Positions 1 to 43,689 of a stretch of 43,689 bases of DNA are shown piece by piece. The position numbers and the translations under genes were made by a program. Position 1 is the stretch's first letter. Every line of letters begins with the position of its first letter. Under the pieces are notes generated by a model, which saw only the letters and a list, made by a program, of their open reading frames with translations, was not told where the DNA came from and did no database searches. The DNA is from a virus. Its lineage: Duplodnaviria > Heunggongvirae > Uroviricota > Caudoviricetes. The DNA is taken from positions 1 to 43,689 of IMG/VR virus record IMGVR_UViG_3300045988_038444; one strand, 5' to 3'.

Positions 1-105
1 CCTGTAGCAGCGCCTACACCAGCGGCAGCACCTGTAGCAGCGCCTACACCAGCGGCAGCACCTGTAGCAGCGCCTACACCAGCGGCAGCACCTGTAGCAG
101 CGCCT
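1..105. repeat. 30-bp tandem repeat, 3.5 copies, cut by the window start
   Basis: cctgtagcagcgcctacaccagcggcagca occurs exactly at 1, 31 and 61, with a partial copy from 91. In frame it encodes PVAAPTPAAA. Confidence 0.95.
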
Positions 106-249
106 GTGAAGGTGATGACTGAAAAAGCAGGTGGTGTAACTTACGAACAGTTTATTGCGCAAGGTTGGAACGATGAACAACTGATCGCTAACGGTTATAT
201 GGTAATGACCACCCCGGCCCCGAATTTTCTCAACGGTAACGGTTACTGA
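1..249 (+). CDS. C-terminal fragment of a repeat-containing protein; the start lies outside the window
   Basis: Frame 1 is open from base 1 to TGA 247-249. It reads (PVAAPTPAAA)x3, then a non-repetitive tail ...GVTYEQFIAQGWNDEQLIANGYMVMTTPAPNFLNGNGY. There is no start codon in the window, so it is absent from the ORF track. Confidence 0.55.
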   Translation, partial: PVAAPTPAAAPVAAPTPAAAPVAAPTPAAAPVAAPVKVMTEKAGGVTYEQFIAQGWNDEQLIANGYMVMTTPAPNFLNGNGY

Positions 250-16145: not shown

Positions 16146-16187
16146 TTTAAAATAATTCTTGACGGATTACACAATGATGTGTAACCT
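16146..16187 (+). promoter_or_regulatory. conserved sigma70 promoter cassette P1
   Basis: TTTAAAATAATTC + TTGACG (16159-16164), 17 nt, TAACCT (16182-16187). Confidence 0.7.
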
Positions 16188-16398: not shown

Positions 16399-17310
16399 AT
16401 GAGTAGGAAACGTTTAACCACAGAAGAGTTTATCACGCGTGCCCGTGAAGTTCATGGGCACAAATACGATTACTCACTAGTGGAGTATTTGAATTGGCGC
16501 ACACCTGTGAAAATCATCTGTCCTATACATGGAGTGTTTGAACAAATTCCTAATAATCATTTAAAAGGACGCAAGTGTTTATTCTGTGCAGGAAATCAAC
16601 AATCAAATACCAATGAATTTATCACAAGGGGGCGCGAAGTTCATGGGGGTAAGTATGGTTATTCGTTGGTGAAATATAAAGACTCTCGGACCAAAGTGAA
16701 AATCATTTGTCCAATACACGGAATGTTTGAACAACGTCCATATAGTCACTTGCAGCAAAAAGCAGGTTGCCCACAATGTGCTTGGGAACAATTGTCTGAA
16801 CAAAGACGTTTATCCGCCGAAGAATTCATTACTCGTGCTCGCGAAGTTCACGGGGACCGTTACGACTATTCGTTGGTGGAGTATGTTAACAATTCCACCC
16901 CTGTAAAAATTATTTGTTCAGAACACGGTGTGTTTGAACAGACACCGGGCAATCACACATTTATGAAAGCTGGCTGTCCCCAGTGCGCTGAAACAGGTTT
17001 TAATCCGTCAGAACCCGGCACGTTATATGTACTCGCTGATGATAAACAGTATCCCACTCTGATTAAAATTGGTATTACAAACGACTTAAAACAGCGACTA
17101 CGACAACTACAACGACGAACTCCGCATCTTGTGGTTAAACTTGTATCGTATCCGTTCCCACATGGCGCTGACGCTTACAAACTGGAACAAGAGGTACACA
17201 AGGTCTTTCACGAACTTAATGCGCGTCTCAAAGGCTTTGACGGTGCTACAGAGTGGTTTAAATACTCTCCTGCAATCCTCGATTACATAAATGAAAAAGC
17301 CCGGAACTAA
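16399..17310 (+). CDS. T5orf172 (GIY-YIG-related) homing-endonuclease-like protein with three N-terminal zinc-ribbon repeats
   Basis: Three ~60-aa modules (EEFITRAREVHGxxYDYSLVEY...KIICPxHGxFEQxPxxH...GCPQCA). The C-terminus reads GTLYVL...IKIGITNDLKQRLRQL...ATEWF. Confidence 0.75.
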   Translation: MSRKRLTTEEFITRAREVHGHKYDYSLVEYLNWRTPVKIICPIHGVFEQIPNNHLKGRKCLFCAGNQQSNTNEFITRGREVHGGKYGYSLVKYKDSRTKVKIICPIHGMFEQRPYSHLQQKAGCPQCAWEQLSEQRRLSAEEFITRAREVHGDRYDYSLVEYVNNSTPVKIICSEHGVFEQTPGNHTFMKAGCPQCAETGFNPSEPGTLYVLADDKQYPTLIKIGITNDLKQRLRQLQRRTPHLVVKLVSYPFPHGADAYKLEQEVHKVFHELNARLKGFDGATEWFKYSPAILDYINEKARN

Positions 17311-17330
17311 CCGGGCTTATGTTTATTTTT
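17297..17330. terminator. bidirectional hairpin terminator at the end of the endonuclease gene
   Basis: AAGCCCGG-AACTAA-CCGGGCTT with a T-rich tail downstream and an A-run upstream. Confidence 0.55.
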
Positions 17331-21184: not shown

Positions 21185-21206
21185 TGACAAACCTAAAGGT
21201 AGAAAA

Positions 21207-22103
21207 ATGGGCGGTAAAAGACTAACCAAAGAACAACTAGAGCATAACATAAAAGATATTTGTCAATCAAAAAATTACAAATTTATAAAATGGAAAGACG
21301 GGTTTAAAAACAAAGAATCACGAATTATTTTATCTTGTGTTACACACGGGGAATGGGACACTAAATGTTATCATTTTTTGAATGGTTCTGGTTGTCCGAT
21401 CTGTGGTGGAACACGAACCACAAAAGGGTTAAGAATTGCACAGATTAAAGACAGTTTAACAAATTCTAAATCAAAGTTTATTAAATTTAAAACTAATTTT
21501 CAAAATGGAAATTCTGTTTGTTTGCTGAGCTGTATTGATCATGGTGGATGGGAGACAACAGTCAATAGACTAATCTTTACATCTGTTGATTGCCCGTTGT
21601 GTATAACGAATAGACAGAAAACTAAACAAGAACGAGAAATTGAAATAACAAATAGATGTAAAGAAACAGGGTTGTTTTTTAATAAGATATTCGACGAACA
21701 TCCGACATGGAAATCTAAAATATCATTAAAGTGTTCAACGCATGGTGATTTTGTTACAACAATTAATTCTTTTCTTAGTAAACAAAAAGGTTGTCCAAAC
21801 TGTAGTAAAACAGGGTTTAAAGCTGGTAAGTATGCAACACTTTATGTCTTGCGGTCCACATGCGGTCGTTACGTTAAAATAGGTATCAGTAATTGTGTAG
21901 AGCAAAGAATTAATACACTTCGTAGAAAAACACCATTTGATTTTCAAGTAATAGAAAAATTGAATGGACACGGGGCAACCATTCGTTCACTTGAAAAAGA
22001 TTTTCATTCTCATTTTGAATCTGCAGGATTAACCGGGTTCGATGGTTGTACAGAGTGGTTAAAATGGAATCCAAATATAACCACTCTGATACGGATGTTA
22101 TAG
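21207..22103 (+). CDS. T5orf172 (GIY-YIG-related) homing-endonuclease-like protein, second family member
   Basis: Three Cys/His modules (CVTHGEW...GCPICGG; CIDHGGW...DCPLCI; CSTHGDF...GCPNCS). The C-terminus reads ATLYVL...VKIGISNCVEQRINTL...CTEWLKW. Strongly AT-rich. Sits antisense between two neck genes. Confidence 0.75.
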   Translation: MGGKRLTKEQLEHNIKDICQSKNYKFIKWKDGFKNKESRIILSCVTHGEWDTKCYHFLNGSGCPICGGTRTTKGLRIAQIKDSLTNSKSKFIKFKTNFQNGNSVCLLSCIDHGGWETTVNRLIFTSVDCPLCITNRQKTKQEREIEITNRCKETGLFFNKIFDEHPTWKSKISLKCSTHGDFVTTINSFLSKQKGCPNCSKTGFKAGKYATLYVLRSTCGRYVKIGISNCVEQRINTLRRKTPFDFQVIEKLNGHGATIRSLEKDFHSHFESAGLTGFDGCTEWLKWNPNITTLIRML

Positions 22104-22481
22104 TTATACCGCTCCAACAGGATGAATAAATGCCATATCATCCCCTAACAATCGTGGGTTTTGACGATCAAGAAGGCGATATTCTTTACCACGTTCATCA
22201 ACCACAACATCACCCCGATCAGGAACAAATCGTGGTTCAAAACTCTGACTATCCATAATTACCATCGTTGTGGTTATTCTGGTCATAGTAGTCGGATCCC
22301 ACTTTTCTAATGGGTAAATATAACCACGACACGTATGCGATTCAGTAACGGTTGTACCCGGTAATGTAGGATTAGACGGGTTGGGAACTGTTATCACACG
22401 TTTTACCGTCAAATCCTCACCTACTTCAGCAAGTGCACGAGTAACACCTTTCAGGACACTTTGACGTTTGTCTGCCATCAC
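22104..22481 (-). CDS. head closure / head-tail adaptor protein
   Basis: 125 aa. Follows the connector-like gene. Called on synteny. Confidence 0.45.
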   Translation of the reverse strand: MMADKRQSVLKGVTRALAEVGEDLTVKRVITVPNPSNPTLPGTTVTESHTCRGYIYPLEKWDPTTMTRITTTMVIMDSQSFEPRFVPDRGDVVVDERGKEYRLLDRQNPRLLGDDMAFIHPVGAV

Positions 22482-26568: not shown

Positions 26569-26978
26569 TATTCCACATCCTCATAATATGCAGTTCCACC
26601 GATACTATATCCCGTATATTCACCAGTCTGAAACTTTTTCAAAACTTCGTCATCAGTTATCAACGTACCAACAATGACGCCTGTCTGATCCAGTTTATCA
26701 ACCAGTCCAAAACTTGCTGCAATGTCTTCGGTCATCGGGAACGCAAACACAACTTTCCCAACAGGTTGTTGATTATGCATATTATCCATGATGCGCTGAT
26801 CAGAATTCATGAAGTCCAACCATGCTTTCAGAGTGACATCCTCGGGAAATTGCTCGTTGTCCGTGTCTGTGTAAATTTCTAACTGACCTGTCTCCTGATT
26901 ACGTTTTTTACAGATACTACCCCAACCGAATACCATACGTAGTGAGTTGTCAACCTTATTAACTTTTACGTTAATCAC
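26568..26978 (-). CDS. XkdF-like prohead protease domain protein
   Basis: ...FGWGSI...TDTDNEQFPED...HNQQPVGKVV...GEYTGYSIGG resembles the XkdF/S78-type family (from memory). Confidence 0.45.
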   Translation of the reverse strand: MINVKVNKVDNSLRMVFGWGSICKKRNQETGQLEIYTDTDNEQFPEDVTLKAWLDFMNSDQRIMDNMHNQQPVGKVVFAFPMTEDIAASFGLVDKLDQTGVIVGTLITDDEVLKKFQTGEYTGYSIGGTAYYEDVE

Positions 26979-27385
26979 GGGGATTGTCCTCGTATTGTTT
27001 CAACATGACTAAATTCTAACATTTCGGATGAATAATTGCACTGGTGATACACGCTGTTTACAACGTTACCGAATATCTCAGAAAGATTCTTGATCGGTTC
27101 AACAGCAGTCGTTACTGGTTCAACAGCAGTCGTTACTGGTTCAACAGTAGTCGTTACCGGTTCAACAGTAGTCGTTACCGGTTCAACAGCAGTCGTTACT
27201 GGTTCAACAGCGTCCAGATGTTCAGCGACAACCTGGAAAAACACTGTGTTAGTTTCACGGTCAATAATAACCACTGTGCTGGAACTATCTTCAACAATGC
27301 TGAATGAGTAGTCGTAACGATCACCGTGAATTTTACGGGCGCGACGAATGAATTCGTCTGTAGCAACTCTGATGTTCGGATCCAT
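26975..27385 (-). CDS. repeat-containing protein with a degenerate endonuclease-type N-terminal module
   Basis: The start is taken at MDPNIRV (RBS AAGAAGGG). ATDEFIRRARKIHGDRYDYSFSIVED parallels EEFITRAREVHGHKYDYSLVEY of 16399-17310, but the Cys/His ligands are lost. This is followed by (VEPVTTA/T)x5. Confidence 0.5.
   Translation of the reverse strand: MDPNIRVATDEFIRRARKIHGDRYDYSFSIVEDSSSTVVIIDRETNTVFFQVVAEHLDAVEPVTTAVEPVTTTVEPVTTTVEPVTTAVEPVTTAVEPIKNLSEIFGNVVNSVYHQCNYSSEMLEFSHVETIRGQSP
27096..27213. repeat. 21-bp tandem repeat, about 5.6 copies
   Basis: ggttcaacagcagtcgttact-type units start at 27096, 27117, 27138, 27159 and 27180, with a partial unit at 27201. In frame on the minus strand. 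Confidence 0.95.
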
Positions 27386-27530
27386 ACATTCAACCCTTCT
27401 TGTTCTCTTAACCACAGGGTAGTTGTGTCGGTGTAATCCGTCAAGAATTATTTTGCGTATAGATTCATGGGAAGTATGCGACCCCCTATACCTTTTAAAC
27501 CTCTCCTACTTGCAGCAACTTTTACTACTT

Positions 27531-27637
27531 ATACTACTCTTCTATTTATCTATGTTTATTATGTTTTCTATAAAAAGATAACAAAAAGAATAAGATAGAG
27601 AGGGGTTGGTTAAAAAGTAAACATGACGAAATATATG
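27531..27637. repeat. dispersed ~105-bp AT-rich repeat, copy 1 (partner at 42606-42713)
   Basis: ...ctatgtttattatgttttctataaaaagataacaaaaagaataagatagagaggggttggttaaaaagtaaacatgacgaaatatatg aligns with copy 2 in direct orientation with few mismatches. Confidence 0.8.
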
Positions 27638-27741: not shown

Positions 27742-27783
27742 TTTAAAATAATTCTTGACGGATTACACCGACGCAACTATCTT
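27742..27783 (+). promoter_or_regulatory. conserved sigma70 promoter cassette P3
   Basis: TTTAAAATAATTC + TTGACG (27755-27760), 17 nt, TATCTT (27778-27783). Confidence 0.7.
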
Positions 27784-27814
27784 GTGGTTAACAGGAAGAA
27801 AAAGGAGACATGCA

Positions 27815-27887: not shown

Positions 27888-28436
27888 ATGAACGAACTGA
27901 CAAACACCAACGTTGATTTCACAATGTCCAGCCTGGATTTCTTGAAGAATGTTATCAACCCAGCACGTGTGGCTGAAGGTGAGGAAGTCTGGGTCCGTCA
28001 TAATGATTTCTTAGCCAGAGTTAAGGATGAATTAGAAGGTCAAGTTTTGGTTACGAAACTTTTCACACCCAAACTTCAGGGAAGAGGTGGCAATAGAAAA
28101 CCGTTTGAAGTGGTCGATCTAAACATGGATCAAATGCTTCTTGTGGGTATGCGTGAATCTAAAGCCGTTCGCAAAGCTGTATTAGCCAAATTAAAGAAGT
28201 TGAATAACCACCAACACCAACCGTTACTACAGTTACAGTGTGAAATCGGAGAATTGCACAAACAGAATGACGAACTACGTAACGAAATTGAAGTCGATCG
28301 TAAGACCTATGATTTGTTGTTGGTAGACATGAAAAAGTTATGGGAAGAGAAAGAAAATCTGCAAAAAGAATTAACTGCTTTGCGTAAACAGGATGATGTT
28401 CGTAAACGTGCGCTTAAACTTTTACTTGGGTTATAA
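27888..28436 (+). CDS. Rha-like / antirepressor-like regulatory protein with C-terminal coiled coil
   Basis: N-terminal SSLDFLKNV...RHNDFLARVKDEL...MLLVGMRESKAVRKAVLAKL resembles the Rha family (from memory). Confidence 0.4.
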   Translation: MNELTNTNVDFTMSSLDFLKNVINPARVAEGEEVWVRHNDFLARVKDELEGQVLVTKLFTPKLQGRGGNRKPFEVVDLNMDQMLLVGMRESKAVRKAVLAKLKKLNNHQHQPLLQLQCEIGELHKQNDELRNEIEVDRKTYDLLLVDMKKLWEEKENLQKELTALRKQDDVRKRALKLLLGL

Positions 28437-28439
28437 CCT

Positions 28440-28601
28440 ATGGGTAAAAAGAAACGGAAACAGCCTGTCAAGAAAGAACCATATAACCCACGGCATGTTA
28501 ATGAGTTATGGGCTAAAGATGTGGACGATTTTACTGAATCTGACTGGAGTAAAGTCACAAGGTTGATCGTTAAATTAAGACGACTATCGAGGTACGCGTA
28601 A
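28440..28601 (+). CDS. hypothetical basic protein (53 aa)
   Basis: MGKKKRKQPVKKEPYNPRH... Its stop overlaps the next ATG (TAATG). Below the track cutoff. Confidence 0.4.
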   Translation: MGKKKRKQPVKKEPYNPRHVNELWAKDVDDFTESDWSKVTRLIVKLRRLSRYA

Positions 28602-28876
28602 TGTGTTACTGTATGAAAAAAGTTGGTGACGAACTTCAAAAACGTCTGATGGAAAAAGTACCAGTAGGTTCGGAAGTCAGCACTAACCTGTTTGATAAAG
28701 TTGGCTGGGATAATCAGTGTTTCGGTCTGACGTCTGGTAAAACTTACGTTATGTTGAAATATCGTCTTGCATACCGTGCTAAAAAGAAAAACGGTGAACT
28801 GGCGAAGAACTTCACGCGCCTGGAAACCAACATCAAAATGTCTTATTGTCCATTCTGCGGGGAGAAACAGGAGTAA
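28601..28876 (+). CDS. hypothetical protein (91 aa) with a C-terminal CPFCG motif
   Basis: ORF in the track. Coupled to the flanking genes. Confidence 0.55.
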   Translation: MCYCMKKVGDELQKRLMEKVPVGSEVSTNLFDKVGWDNQCFGLTSGKTYVMLKYRLAYRAKKKNGELAKNFTRLETNIKMSYCPFCGEKQE

Positions 28877-28881
28877 TCGCT

Positions 28882-29111
28882 ATGGGAATGAAACAAATAT
28901 GGGATGGTAAAACCTTCCTTCTGTTGGTTGTGAAGTATTGATCCATCTGGCAAGCATTAACAAGTGGGTGGCACGAACTGTTCAGGGTTATGAAATATGG
29001 CCTTCTGTTTATGAAAATGATACGGCACATCACAGGGTAAACATAAAATTTGAAGATAATGTTCGTCTGTTATGTGATGTGCGACCTCTTGACTGGCGTG
29101 AACCTGATTAA
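28882..29111 (+). pseudogene. small gene with an apparent -1 frame disruption
   Basis: Strong RBS AGGAG, 8 nt, then ATG 28882. The frame stops after 19 aa. The -1 frame is open from 28911 to TAA 29109-29111 and reads NLPSVGCEVLIHLASINKWVARTVQGYEIW...LDWREPD. An A4 run lies at 28909-28912. Confidence 0.45.
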
Positions 29112-29114
29112 CTT

Positions 29115-29175
29115 GGTTCGATGGCTGTACTGAGTGGTTAAAATGGAATCCAAATATAACCACTCTAATACGTAT
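29115..29175 (+). pseudogene. 61-bp fossil of the 3' end of a T5orf172 endonuclease gene
   Basis: Matches 22036-22096 at 57 of 61 positions, would encode FDGCTEWLKWNPNITTLIR, and has stop codons just upstream in that frame. Confidence 0.75.
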
Positions 29176-29177
29176 AA

Positions 29178-30137
29178 TCACGGGATAACATTTATATCTT
29201 GAGGGAGAGAATAAGCAACCCGGCAACGACAATTAATCACGTTCGCAGCACTACCGTTAGGATCACGAGGAAACATAAGTGGTCCTAACGGCGTTGAAAA
29301 CGGTCTGTCCATTGGTATCCAGCCGTTCGTTTCACCTGTAGAAATATGCGCATCACGTGTCCGACCATCTTTTCTATATAACCAGCGCTTCAGCAATTCA
29401 TTACTAATAGCCCCGGTAATCTGTCCCTGACGTATTGCCTGATCCTGACCAACTGATACAGCACGAAGTGATTCAGTACGCGCTATTGTCTCTGTACGCT
29501 GTTTTACATAACGCAAGCGTGTCTGTTCGATTATCTGGTCAATCTTCACCTGTGATAGTTTCCCGGCACTTACAGCGTTCTTCGCACTGTCTGTAACAGT
29601 GGTCAGACTGTTCACATAACCTGCTTCACCTTTTTCCAGTGCTGATCGTAGACGTTGAACCGTCATTTCCTGCCGTGTGGTTAACCCTATTGATGATCGA
29701 AAATCACGGGCTATCTGACGCGGATTTCGTCCGGTTACCATACCCTGGTTAACTGCAATCTGAACAGCTTTGACTGTTTCGTCACTGACTTCACGGATCA
29801 GTTGTCCGACATAGTTGTTGATATATGTGCTGACCTGTGGGGTGACCAGACTGAACACAACCGGACCTGTTACAGCCGCTTTCGGTAGAACCTGAACGAC
29901 TACACGACCTGATTCAGCGATCGCATCTTCAATAACCGGGCGCAACTGTGCACTAAGTTCATCAGGAAGTGTTTCAAGAATGGGGAGTAACCCGGCAATA
30001 CCTTGGGTTTCAATAATGTATTCCAGGTTGGCTAACGACTCACTACGACGCACGTTTTCCCACACAACATCAAGTGCTTCGCGAATGCGAGCGTCATACT
30101 TGTCTGAAATATCCGGGTATGGGTCTTTAGTAGCCAT
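29178..30137 (-). CDS. head morphogenesis protein (Mu F / SPP1 gp7 family)
   Basis: 319 aa. The C-terminal ...TRDAH...NCRCRV motif is typical of the family. Confidence 0.8.
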   Translation of the reverse strand: MATKDPYPDISDKYDARIREALDVVWENVRRSESLANLEYIIETQGIAGLLPILETLPDELSAQLRPVIEDAIAESGRVVVQVLPKAAVTGPVVFSLVTPQVSTYINNYVGQLIREVSDETVKAVQIAVNQGMVTGRNPRQIARDFRSSIGLTTRQEMTVQRLRSALEKGEAGYVNSLTTVTDSAKNAVSAGKLSQVKIDQIIEQTRLRYVKQRTETIARTESLRAVSVGQDQAIRQGQITGAISNELLKRWLYRKDGRTRDAHISTGETNGWIPMDRPFSTPLGPLMFPRDPNGSAANVINCRCRVAYSLPQDINVIP

Positions 30138-30144
30138 AAAAAAG

Positions 30145-30166
30145 CCTCAGTTAACACACTGAGGCC
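30145..30166 (-). terminator. hairpin with T-run directly upstream of the head morphogenesis ATG (attenuator/terminator)
   Basis: On the minus strand: GCCTCAG-TGTGTTAA-CTGAGGC then TTTTTT then ATG. Confidence 0.5.
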
Positions 30167-30180
30167 GATTATATCACGTG

Positions 30181-30324
30181 TTACGGACGTGGAAGATTAC
30201 GTTTTTCAGTTCCCTGAATGCGGTTCTTAACTTCGCGGATCTGTTCTTCCAGAAACTGTAACGCTTTTTGTGCTCGTTCGTAGTCTATTTCAAGTTCACG
30301 TAATAATTTTTCATCTTTTGTCAC
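30181..30324 (-). CDS. possible small coiled-coil protein (47 aa, GTG start)
   Basis: VTKDEKLLRELEIDYERAQKALQFLEEQIREVKNRIQGTEKRNLPRP fills an otherwise empty gap. Below the track cutoff. Confidence 0.35.
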   Translation of the reverse strand: MTKDEKLLRELEIDYERAQKALQFLEEQIREVKNRIQGTEKRNLPRP

Positions 30325-41017: not shown

Positions 41018-41346
41018 GAACAGAACAGGAACGTATTATTCAGTGGTTATGTTCTGGTGAAACCGGACTAAGCTCTAAAACGATGGTCTGCATTCACACG
41101 GGTAATGAAATGGGTTACGGCTGGGAGTTTAGAGCACCCTTTGACGTTTCTGATTTTCGCCGTTGTTGGTTCCTGGTTGAAGCTGTGCCAGAAATCAGAA
41201 ACAGTTTTCCGTTGATTGCTGAAAAGTGTCCGGCGTTTAAAGGTGTGATTGAAAACTGGGACGTTATTAGCGCAGCTTATGAACGTGAACGCGGATCCGG
41301 TAAATGTCCTGAAACGTATCGGTTACTGAAAGAAAGTTTAAAATAA
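41014..41346 (+). CDS. hypothetical protein (110 aa)
   Basis: ATGA overlap with rdgC. Its last codons lie inside promoter cassette P9. Confidence 0.55.
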
Positions 41347-42605: not shown

Positions 42606-42713
42606 ATACTACTTCTTCTTTATATCTATGTTTTCTATGTTATCTATAAAAAGATAATAAAAAGAATAAGATAGAGAAGGGTCGGTTAAAAAATAAACAT
42701 GACGAAATCTATG
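42606..42713. repeat. dispersed ~105-bp AT-rich repeat, copy 2 (partner at 27531-27637)
   Basis: Direct-orientation copy with few mismatches. Contains a degenerate version of the promoter cassette (TTAAAAAATAAACATGACGAAAT). Confidence 0.8.
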
Positions 42714-42944: not shown

Positions 42945-43689
42945 ATGAAAAAGAACCTTTTAGACGAATTAATAGATTTAAAAGGCGGGGTACAAAACGC
43001 TGTTGAATACCTTAATCGTCGAGGTGTTAAGGTGACTGTTGGTCGTTACAACCAATGGTTAAGCGGTAGGTTTCATCCTAAATATGAAACGATCAGTATT
43101 ATTCTTGAAGAGATTACTGACTTCACACTGTCACCCTTGCCAGTACAACATTCTGACGAAAACATTGTTCTTAAACACACAATACCGGTTACCGAACTGC
43201 GTCAGAAATTACCACACAGACGTTTTGCTAATAACTACTGGCAACGTGTCAGATACGTTGATTCACAGATCCTGGAAGCTGTTCACGGTCACGACGTGTG
43301 GACACGGTTTGAGGCGATGTGTGGTAATTTTGAATGTGCAAGATATGTGCTACGCAGAAATTTAAACGAACACACAATTACTGACAGTTGGATTCAAAAT
43401 GGTTTGCGCCGGGGATGGATCCCGGAATGTGTAAACGTAATGGTCGATTTGCTTGAAAAATACGAAGGCACCGGGACACCGTTTAACGTAATGGTTTGTG
43501 AACCACCTGTATCACGAGTGGAACCACCTGTATCACGAGTGGAAGCACCTGTATCACGAGTGGAACCACCTGTATCACGAGTGGAAGCACCTGTAGCACG
43601 AGTTGAAGCACCTGTAGCACGATTTGAACCGCCTGTAGTCGATGTCAGCGATTTGAAGGAGAAAATCAGACTGTATGCGTTATCACACA
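42945..43689 (+). CDS. N-terminal part of an HTH-containing, repeat-bearing protein; runs off the window end
   Basis: RBS AAGAAGGG, 7 nt, then ATG 42945. The frame is open to base 43689. The N-terminus ...GGVQNAVEYLNRRGVKVTVGRYNQWLSGRF is Cro/YdaS-like HTH. It ends in the (E-P/A-P-V-S/A-R-V)x7 repeats. There is no stop in the window, so it is absent from the track. Confidence 0.6.
   Translation, partial: MKKNLLDELIDLKGGVQNAVEYLNRRGVKVTVGRYNQWLSGRFHPKYETISIILEEITDFTLSPLPVQHSDENIVLKHTIPVTELRQKLPHRRFANNYWQRVRYVDSQILEAVHGHDVWTRFEAMCGNFECARYVLRRNLNEHTITDSWIQNGLRRGWIPECVNVMVDLLEKYEGTGTPFNVMVCEPPVSRVEPPVSRVEAPVSRVEPPVSRVEAPVARVEAPVARFEPPVVDVSDLKEKIRLYALSH
43500..43646. repeat. 21-bp tandem repeat, about 7 copies
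   Basis: gaaccacctgtatcacgagtg-type units start at 43500, 43521, 43542, 43563, 43584, 43605 and 43626. The distal units are progressively diverged. Confidence 0.95.

Follow-up and report, generated by a model that had tools for sequence, protein, structure and literature searches.

Remnant of a putative homing endonuclease gene beside the head morphogenesis gene of a 9NA/Sasha-like siphophage

In the phage sequence studied here (IMG/VR record IMGVR_UViG_3300045988_038444, analysed over all of its 43,689 nucleotides and called the window in what follows), the stretch 29115-29175, next to the head morphogenesis gene, repeats the 3' end of a putative endonuclease gene that lies intact about 7 kb away. 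How did the end of such a gene come to stand there alone, and in what state has it left the site? A sequence-only reading had taken the stretch for the fossil of an endonuclease gene, left either by a former insertion that was deleted or by gene conversion between two homing sites. The window is that of a 9NA/Sasha-like siphophage, a group found in E. coli, Salmonella and Klebsiella, and its best database matches, 94-97% identical, are PDP46, PJ16, Bas82, AVIO78A and 536P12. The features of the locus are the following.

28882-29111, plus strand: small upstream gene, convergent with the head gene (76 aa in relatives), whose stop TAA at 29109-29111 is the left side of the junction
29106-29112, plus strand: putative deletion junction GATTAAC, at the place of the endonuclease codons for (G/E)-L-T, which read GGATTAAC / AGTTGAC where the gene is intact
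29113-29188, plus strand: remnant of the head-site endonuclease gene, comprising its last 24 codons (29114-29185, WFDGCTEWLKWNPNITTLIRIITG) and TAA
29132-29165, no strand assigned: 9-bp inverted repeat, GAGTGGTTA / TAACCACTC, 13-46 nt past the stop of the head gene as read on the minus strand, and present in every intact copy
29178-29217, minus strand: cassette-derived replacement 3' end of the head gene, ending in VAYSLPQDINVIP and a stop, versus VQYSLPEDIGSLG and a stop in HEG-free phages (HEG, homing endonuclease gene)
29178-30137, minus strand: head morphogenesis gene (Mu F / SPP1 gp7-like; Pfam PF04233 Phage_Mu_F, E 2.6e-10; same annotation in relatives)

Self-alignment of the window reproduced the match that had been read by eye between 29115-29175 and 22036-22096 (57 of 61 positions, with mismatches at 29125, 29131, 29167 and 29173), and the repeat finder (family D7) extended it to 70 nt, 29106-29175 against 22027-22096, with 64/70 identities or 91%, the second interval being the copy at the 3' end of the gene at 21207-22103. 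The two copies share an exact core of 35 nt, GAGTGGTTAAAATGGAATCCAAATATAACCACTCT, at 22053-22087 and 29132-29166, a sequence that none of 100 dinucleotide shuffles contained (0 matches), up to 3 mismatches being tolerated; this result, together with the presence of the junction in four other contigs, rules out a chance match or an assembly artefact. A scan of genome contigs for the 35-mer returned no match. As had been noticed, the reading frame is kept (29114-29188 translates to WFDGCTEWLKWNPNITTLIRIITG and a stop), with an in-frame TGA just upstream at 29105-29107. The overlap with the final codons of the head gene also stands, since the remnant has its own stop TAA at 29186-29188 and shares 11 nt with the head gene, whose stop is read as TCA at 29178-29180; the end formerly placed at 29175, however, is only where similarity to the 22-kb copy stops, and cassette-derived sequence reaches to about 29217, inside the head gene.

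The remnant peptide is identical in 23/23 amino acids to the C-terminus of PDP46_0032, and when the full-length PDP46 protein was used as a tblastn query just residues 282-307 of 307 were found at the site, the search detecting none of the rest of the protein nearby, in agreement with the earlier statement that nothing else of the gene remains. What is retained of the T5orf172/MUG113 nuclease domain is only its C-terminal Glu motif (TEW); the complete domain is absent, the remnant alone matches no Pfam family, and it is a fragment of a family member rather than a member. The segment belongs to no conserved functional ORF in relatives. A separate ORF was discarded, there being no in-frame start after the TGA at 29105-29107, and so was an unsupported antisense ORF of 91 aa (28957-29232), which overlaps the head gene. 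A weak tblastn match at 41104-41313 was likewise set aside, as the ORFs there are unlike the endonuclease family.

The small upstream gene has a run of four A (28909-28912) where all relatives have five (76 aa in AVIO78A, PJ16, PDP46 and IMG/VR 3300014770_000007), and the missing A shifts its frame, the remaining ORF being a TTG-start one of 57 aa at 28938-29111. ENA contig k141_60417 (L024), with 100% identity to the window, has the run of four as well; the gene may be a true pseudogene, or the two sequences may have a sequencing error in common.

The family from which the remnant derives has two further members in the window.

21207-22103, plus strand: intact paralogue, putative homing endonuclease of 298 aa, with CapR-homology repeats and MUG113/T5orf172
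16399-17310, plus strand: third family member, 303 aa, with three DUF723/CapR-like zinc-ribbon repeats and T5orf172 (Pfam)

In the Pfam search PDP46_0032 scored 43.6 bits for MUG113, 25.0 bits for T5orf172 and 80.4 bits, in 3 stretches, for CapR (PF21817), and the protein of 21207-22103 scored 34.8, 24.1 and 66.5 bits (2 stretches), respectively, all above the cut-offs, which are 22.3 bits for MUG113 (PF13455) and 20 bits for T5orf172 (PF10544). In both proteins the CapR/DUF723 zinc-ribbon modules lie N-terminal to the nuclease, and all of them are gone from the fossil. The alignment shows that intact copies conserve LYVL...YVKIGIS...R...TEW, the nuclease activity being putative. A PDB sequence search with the 22-kb paralogue gave no match. 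The paralogue sits in a 1-nt gap between two minus-strand neck/tail-completion genes; it is missing from 16/16 database relatives, and IMG/VR 3300045988_029198 is the one relative that has it. Its flanks (21185-21206 and 22104-22112, compared with L011:1470-1497) are recoded relative to all empty-site relatives, the downstream gene starting with MTSKIND versus MAKANVND and the upstream gene ending in ..GAV versus ..GAA before the stop, and this rewriting is of the same kind as that at the head-gene site.

The gene at 16399-17310 has in common with the family the GFDG-TEW motif region (17233-17263, repeat family D8) and is 28% identical to PDP46_0032 over 312 aligned positions (tblastn). It is located between the tape-measure and tail-chaperone genes, with a copy of a conserved promoter-like repeat upstream (16146) and a strong hairpin after it (about 17297-17318), and a homologue occurs in BDX09P1, 536P12, Bas82 and PJ16, and not in Sasha, Sergei, Solent, AVIO78A and PDP46. 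The minus-strand ORF 26975-27415 starts with one DUF723/CapR-like module, DEFIRRARKIHGDRYDYS, that matches the repeats of 16399-17310 (BLASTP E 5e-11); its Cys/His ligands are lost, about five VEPVTTA repeats follow (21-nt tandem repeats, 27088-27210), and a nuclease domain is absent. In PDP46 a neighbouring gene in the equivalent position, PDP46_0040, carries the annotation 'DUF723 family protein'. The ORF of the window is perhaps a further relic of an endonuclease gene, or else a DNA-binding module that has been domesticated.

The full-length gene that had been proposed as something to look for in relatives is carried by five of them, at the exact site of the remnant, as expected for the 3' end of a former insertion; in each it encodes a putative HEG of 307 aa with CapR and T5orf172/MUG113 (GIY-YIG-like) regions.

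PDP46, L001:2677-3600: intact head-site gene, 924 bp, 307 aa, with an 11-nt overlap with the head gene
Klebsiella phage KP13-27, L002:2151-3074: intact head-site gene, identical arrangement, 11-nt overlap
IMG/VR 3300045988_029198: intact head-site gene in a phage ~97% identical to the window, with the 22-kb gene also present
IMG/VR 3300045988_057523: intact head-site gene
ENA contig CYGL01002343: intact head-site gene

In PDP46 the gene fills the exact interval between the orthologue of the small gene and the head gene. The head-site alleles counted are five intact, four fossil (all with one junction) and ten empty, the HEG-free phages being PJ16, Bas82, AVIO78A, 536P12, BDX09P1, 9NA, Sasha, Carvaje, Kpn BU9 and VLCpiS10a. 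Those empty-site phages that share the small gene match the window to 29112 and resume at about 29218, with 35 nt between these points versus 105 in the window. This phage group thus shows empty, occupied and decayed states at one site. All four combinations of head-site and 22-kb-site states occur among the relatives, and therefore the two elements would have moved or been lost independently.

The intact and empty alleles also differ within the head gene, which is essential and adjoins the endonuclease site. One tail is common to 10/10 empty-site phages, nearly invariant over three host genera: ..GTA CAG TAC AGT TTG CCG GAA GAT ATA GGT TCA TTG GGT TAA, which encodes VQYSLPEDIGSLG and a stop. 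In the window, PDP46 and KP13-27 the gene ends instead in ..GTT GCT TAT TCT CTC CCT CAA GAT ATA AAT GTT ATC CCG TGA (VAYSLPQDINVIP and a stop), the Klebsiella version of the replacement being VAYSLPEDINVIP and a stop. A block of 18 nt carries recoding that is for the most part synonymous (at Val, Tyr, Ser, AGT to TCT, Leu, TTG to CTC, and Pro) and the last four codons are replaced, so that the last 13 codons are affected overall. The old tail (CCCAACGAACCAATATCTT) persists in HEG-bearing phages, non-coding, to the left of the cassette. With the old tail on the left and a new one on the right, it follows that the cassette supplies a substitute gene end and splits and rewrites the sequence of the empty allele. 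The sequence of the empty-allele tail, which in Bas82 and AVIO78A contains ..GAACCTATATCTTCCGGCAAACTGTACTGTACCCGG.., is presumed to be the target or insertion site, a role with which its splitting and rewriting by the cassette agree, and it would have been destroyed in the window. The recoded block, sharply bounded and about 40 nt long, narrows where the enzyme must bind or cut.

At the left side of the remnant, the window reads CCTGATTAAC joined directly to TTGGTTCGATGG. Three metagenome contigs (IMG/VR 3300014770_000007, OQVO01000029 and OQVL01024742) read CCTGATTAAC joined to TGGGTTCGATGGTTGT, and the junction of CCTGATTAAC with TGGG is thus found also in metagenomic phages without the 22-kb paralogue; in IMG/VR 3300014770_000007 (L016) the fossil is present and the 22-kb site is empty, of the AVIO78A type. 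ENA contig k141_60417 has the same junction and matches the window completely over 5.4 kb. The segments of L016 and L019 that were compared are identical and L020, with the same junction, aligns to the window at ~96%, as they do; the three metagenome contigs are probably one phage population sampled several times, and the observations of the junction amount to at most two or three independent ones. Over the 105 nt of cassette-derived sequence the window is 103/105 identical to PDP46 and to the metagenomic fossils, with two substitutions, at 29114 and 29125, that are private to the window, are missing from the three metagenome fossils and are consistent with later drift. Because all fossil copies have one junction, we concluded that they would go back to one event, inherited by several phages, and that the copy of the window has drifted slightly since; as a single event it offers no replicate for whether such an outcome is favoured.

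The window aligns to PDP46 through 29112 and again from 29108, and the 923 bp between these points in PDP46 (L001:2602-3524) are absent; in both PDP46 and the intact allele of L015, 923 bp lie between ...TTAAC and ...TTGAC followed by TGGG. The nearest intact genes read GCAGAGTTGAC followed by TGGG, and the microhomology amounts to 2 to 7 nt, TT(A/G)AC, of which AC is certain. It is imperfect in these nearest relatives (GATTAAC vs AGTTGAC), and a perfect 7-nt repeat, GGATTAAC, is read only in the head-site gene of CYGL01002343, a chimeric-looking contig. The missing region of PDP46 includes, upstream of the gene, TTGACC-17 nt-TAATAT; a 12-bp hairpin there covers AGGAGG and has the -10 element in its loop. 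The fold of this upstream hairpin (L001:2620-2680 in PDP46; L015:660-720) has a z-score of -3.8, and the start codon of the gene is TTG.

We consider it probable that 29113-29188 is the dead 3' end of a HEG, left by a short-homology deletion in a HEG-bearing ancestor, and that the resulting HEG-less allele lacks the presumed target. In such an ancestor the interval from the small gene, which stops at 29111, to the head gene would have held a complete free-standing putative HEG. This gene, of 307 codons, would have been one of four parts of a cassette, preceded by the obsolete head-gene tail and by a promoter-like element whose hairpin sequesters the RBS, and followed by the recoded replacement tail. 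Two short direct repeats, ..GATTAAC where the upstream gene ends and ..TT(A/G)AC in the Leu-Thr codons of the endonuclease gene, would have been the end points of a 923-bp deletion. Lost with it would have been the old tail and the promoter, every zinc-finger DNA-binding repeat and the greater part of the nuclease domain, while the right end would have been retained because the last codons of the head gene, by then essential, were joined to it. The remnant cannot encode a nuclease, and the fossil allele, with neither the gene nor the sequence of the HEG-free insertion point, would therefore be expected to resist re-invasion by the same endonuclease. The persistence of the ~65 nt between the junction and the head-gene stop needs no function.

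The same allele could have arisen in a lineage in which the full gene was never present, if an empty-site phage, cut while it shared a cell with a HEG-bearing phage, had copied the recoded tail of this donor and the last ~75 nt of its HEG, the nascent strand coming off and being then joined to the resected left end at GATTAAC/TTGAC. Such an aborted homing event would give a product identical to that of the deletion, using the same short microhomology at the junction, and the copied segment would start on the head-gene side, where a break at the presumed target would fall; the 105 nt of cassette sequence are 103-105/105 identical against 95-97% for the head gene, as for a recent transfer, a suggestive difference but one that is not significant. 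It requires, however, more steps (break, partial synthesis, a left trim of ~18 nt and microhomology joining) than one deletion, and the closest relative that retains the region (IMG/VR 3300045988_029198, ~97%) has the complete gene, so that a HEG-bearing ancestor is at hand. We regard this course of events as unlikely, and the deletion as the most economical account. Far less credible still is that the fragment was copied from the intact 22-kb paralogue or is maintained by conversion with it, which covers the gene conversion between two homing sites that had been suggested from the sequence. The exact core of 35 nt, within a 70-nt match of 91% between the loci, would fit such an exchange, and the head-site gene of CYGL01002343 (L017 2934-3003; also L018 1-71) has a patch of ~33 nt of 22-kb-type variants (GAATCTGCAGGATTAACCGGG...ACA) which indicates that it may occur. 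This patch is either gene conversion between the paralogues or a de Bruijn path switch or assembly error, the latter because the contigs have fold-back chimeras and the patch is flanked by two shared exact stretches, and we give it no weight. The fossil resembles its head-site orthologue in PDP46 (107/112) more closely than the paralogue (64/70), it runs on for ~40 nt without similarity to the 22-kb locus, and the two private substitutions of the window are not of the paralogue type. Since the same junction is found in phages without the 22-kb gene, as in IMG/VR 3300014770_000007, where that site is empty, it is improbable in the extreme that the fossil was copied from it.

It may also be asked whether the segment persists because it has a role in its own right, either its hairpin as the 3' end or stabiliser of the head transcript, or a small peptide. 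The 9-bp stem is identical in the fossil and in all intact copies, it folds better than shuffled sequences (29132-29165, z-scores -2.0 to -3.1 on either strand), and on the minus strand it follows closely on the stop codon of the head gene. The stem is, however, also explained by conserved codons (E-W-L ... I-T-T-L), and a terminator at the remnant was ruled out by the absence of a T run; in the intrinsic terminator scan of 28300-30300 the only hit was 30166-30143, with none in the remnant. A peptide would have no in-frame start after the TGA at 29105-29107, HEG-free relatives lack the segment, and two substitutions have already accumulated in the window. A function for the stem is unlikely, and retention of the whole segment for such a role is very doubtful.

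The two repeat copies had also been proposed to mediate deletion of the head-gene block between them. Recombination over the 35-nt exact core is physically possible, but the segment in between holds the genes for the major head protein, the scaffold and the XkdF-type protease, whose loss would produce only defective genomes; the 7-kb direct repeat would then be a curiosity, recombination across it being lethal, and not an evolutionary route. Other repeats of the window were observed as well. Nine copies of an element of about 26 nt, TTTAAAATAATTCTTGAC(G/A)NNTT(A/G)CA, lie at 16146, 18092, 27742, 31343, 32485, 34708, 38127, 39489 and 41337, and by its sequence this element looks like an UP-element with the -35 box of a family of promoters specific to the phage. 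Two copies of a 100-nt direct repeat (90%) stand 15 kb apart, at 27538-27637 and 42614-42713, and a 61-nt inverted repeat (85%), 27394-27454 and 27745-27805, flanks the divergent intergenic region at 27.4-27.8 kb. Tandem repeats of short period, with units of 30 nt and 21 nt, occur at both ends of the window (1-117 and 43479-43646) and probably lie within repeat-rich protein-coding genes.

For annotation, the fossil accounts for a puzzling non-coding gap and for the 7-kb direct repeat in the structural module. Beyond this, the deletion reading allows a further and more tentative proposal, possible rather than probable, that the stub is a stable, resistant and endonuclease-free end state that locks the site, and that the series of empty, intact and fossil alleles outlines the first defined target region of a CapR/T5orf172 gene. 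If true, a cassette that rewrites the last 13 codons of an essential gene would prevent clean excision, and the deletion would keep the target-destroying recoding together with a possibly useful 3' hairpin; a selfish gene that overlaps the end of an essential gene would leave a permanent scar when it is lost.

A decayed HEG is a recognised stage of the invasion-degeneration-loss cycle that Goddard and Burt are said to have modelled for homing endonuclease genes, and the current understanding of homing endonucleases is unchanged by this one. In the classic cycle the loss of the HEG restores a cleavable site. Specific to this locus are the clean series of empty, intact and fossil alleles and, unlike in the classic cycle, an imprecise deletion that leaves the recoded tail in place, so that the HEG-less allele should be endonuclease-free and, as we infer, stay uncleavable.

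Among the T4 endonucleases, the arrangement resembles the 'intronless homing' of the Seg/Mob genes, with insertion between genes beside a conserved target gene and target differences that protect the carrier, and, as for Seg/Mob, paralogues occur at new sites, a possible escape from loss. The cassette of the intact relatives, with its promoter-like element and RBS-sequestering hairpin, is also like that of T4 HEGs, which are regulated by hairpins of this type (PMC2988022). In the T4 nrdB intron, I-TevIII was inactivated by a large deletion and an intact orthologue is found in RB3 (PMC2988022); in both cases a deletion would have made a non-functional remnant of a gene that is complete at the same site in a relative. 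I-TevIII, however, belongs to the HNH enzymes and its gene lies in a group I intron, whereas the gene at the head site is free-standing, GIY-YIG-like and located between convergent genes.

The closest known counterparts belong to the T5orf172/CapR class, which is widespread in phages and has never been shown to home. Putative HEGs of this class were described in Vibrio phage ICP1 and other phages, with experimental verification of homing still lacking (Barth, Dunham and Seed 2023, PMC10448857). As in ICP1, repeated CapR/DUF723 zinc-finger modules are followed by a T5orf172/MUG113 GIY-YIG-like nuclease, and the genes are variably present in close relatives, stand beside essential structural genes, have several paralogues in one genome and decay through frameshifts or deletions. 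The family described here differs in its host group, the 9NA/Sasha-like enterobacterial siphophages, and in the form of its decay, since the ICP1 genes decay by frameshift or in-frame deletion, whereas at the head site a 3' stub is left fused to the tail of the neighbouring gene.
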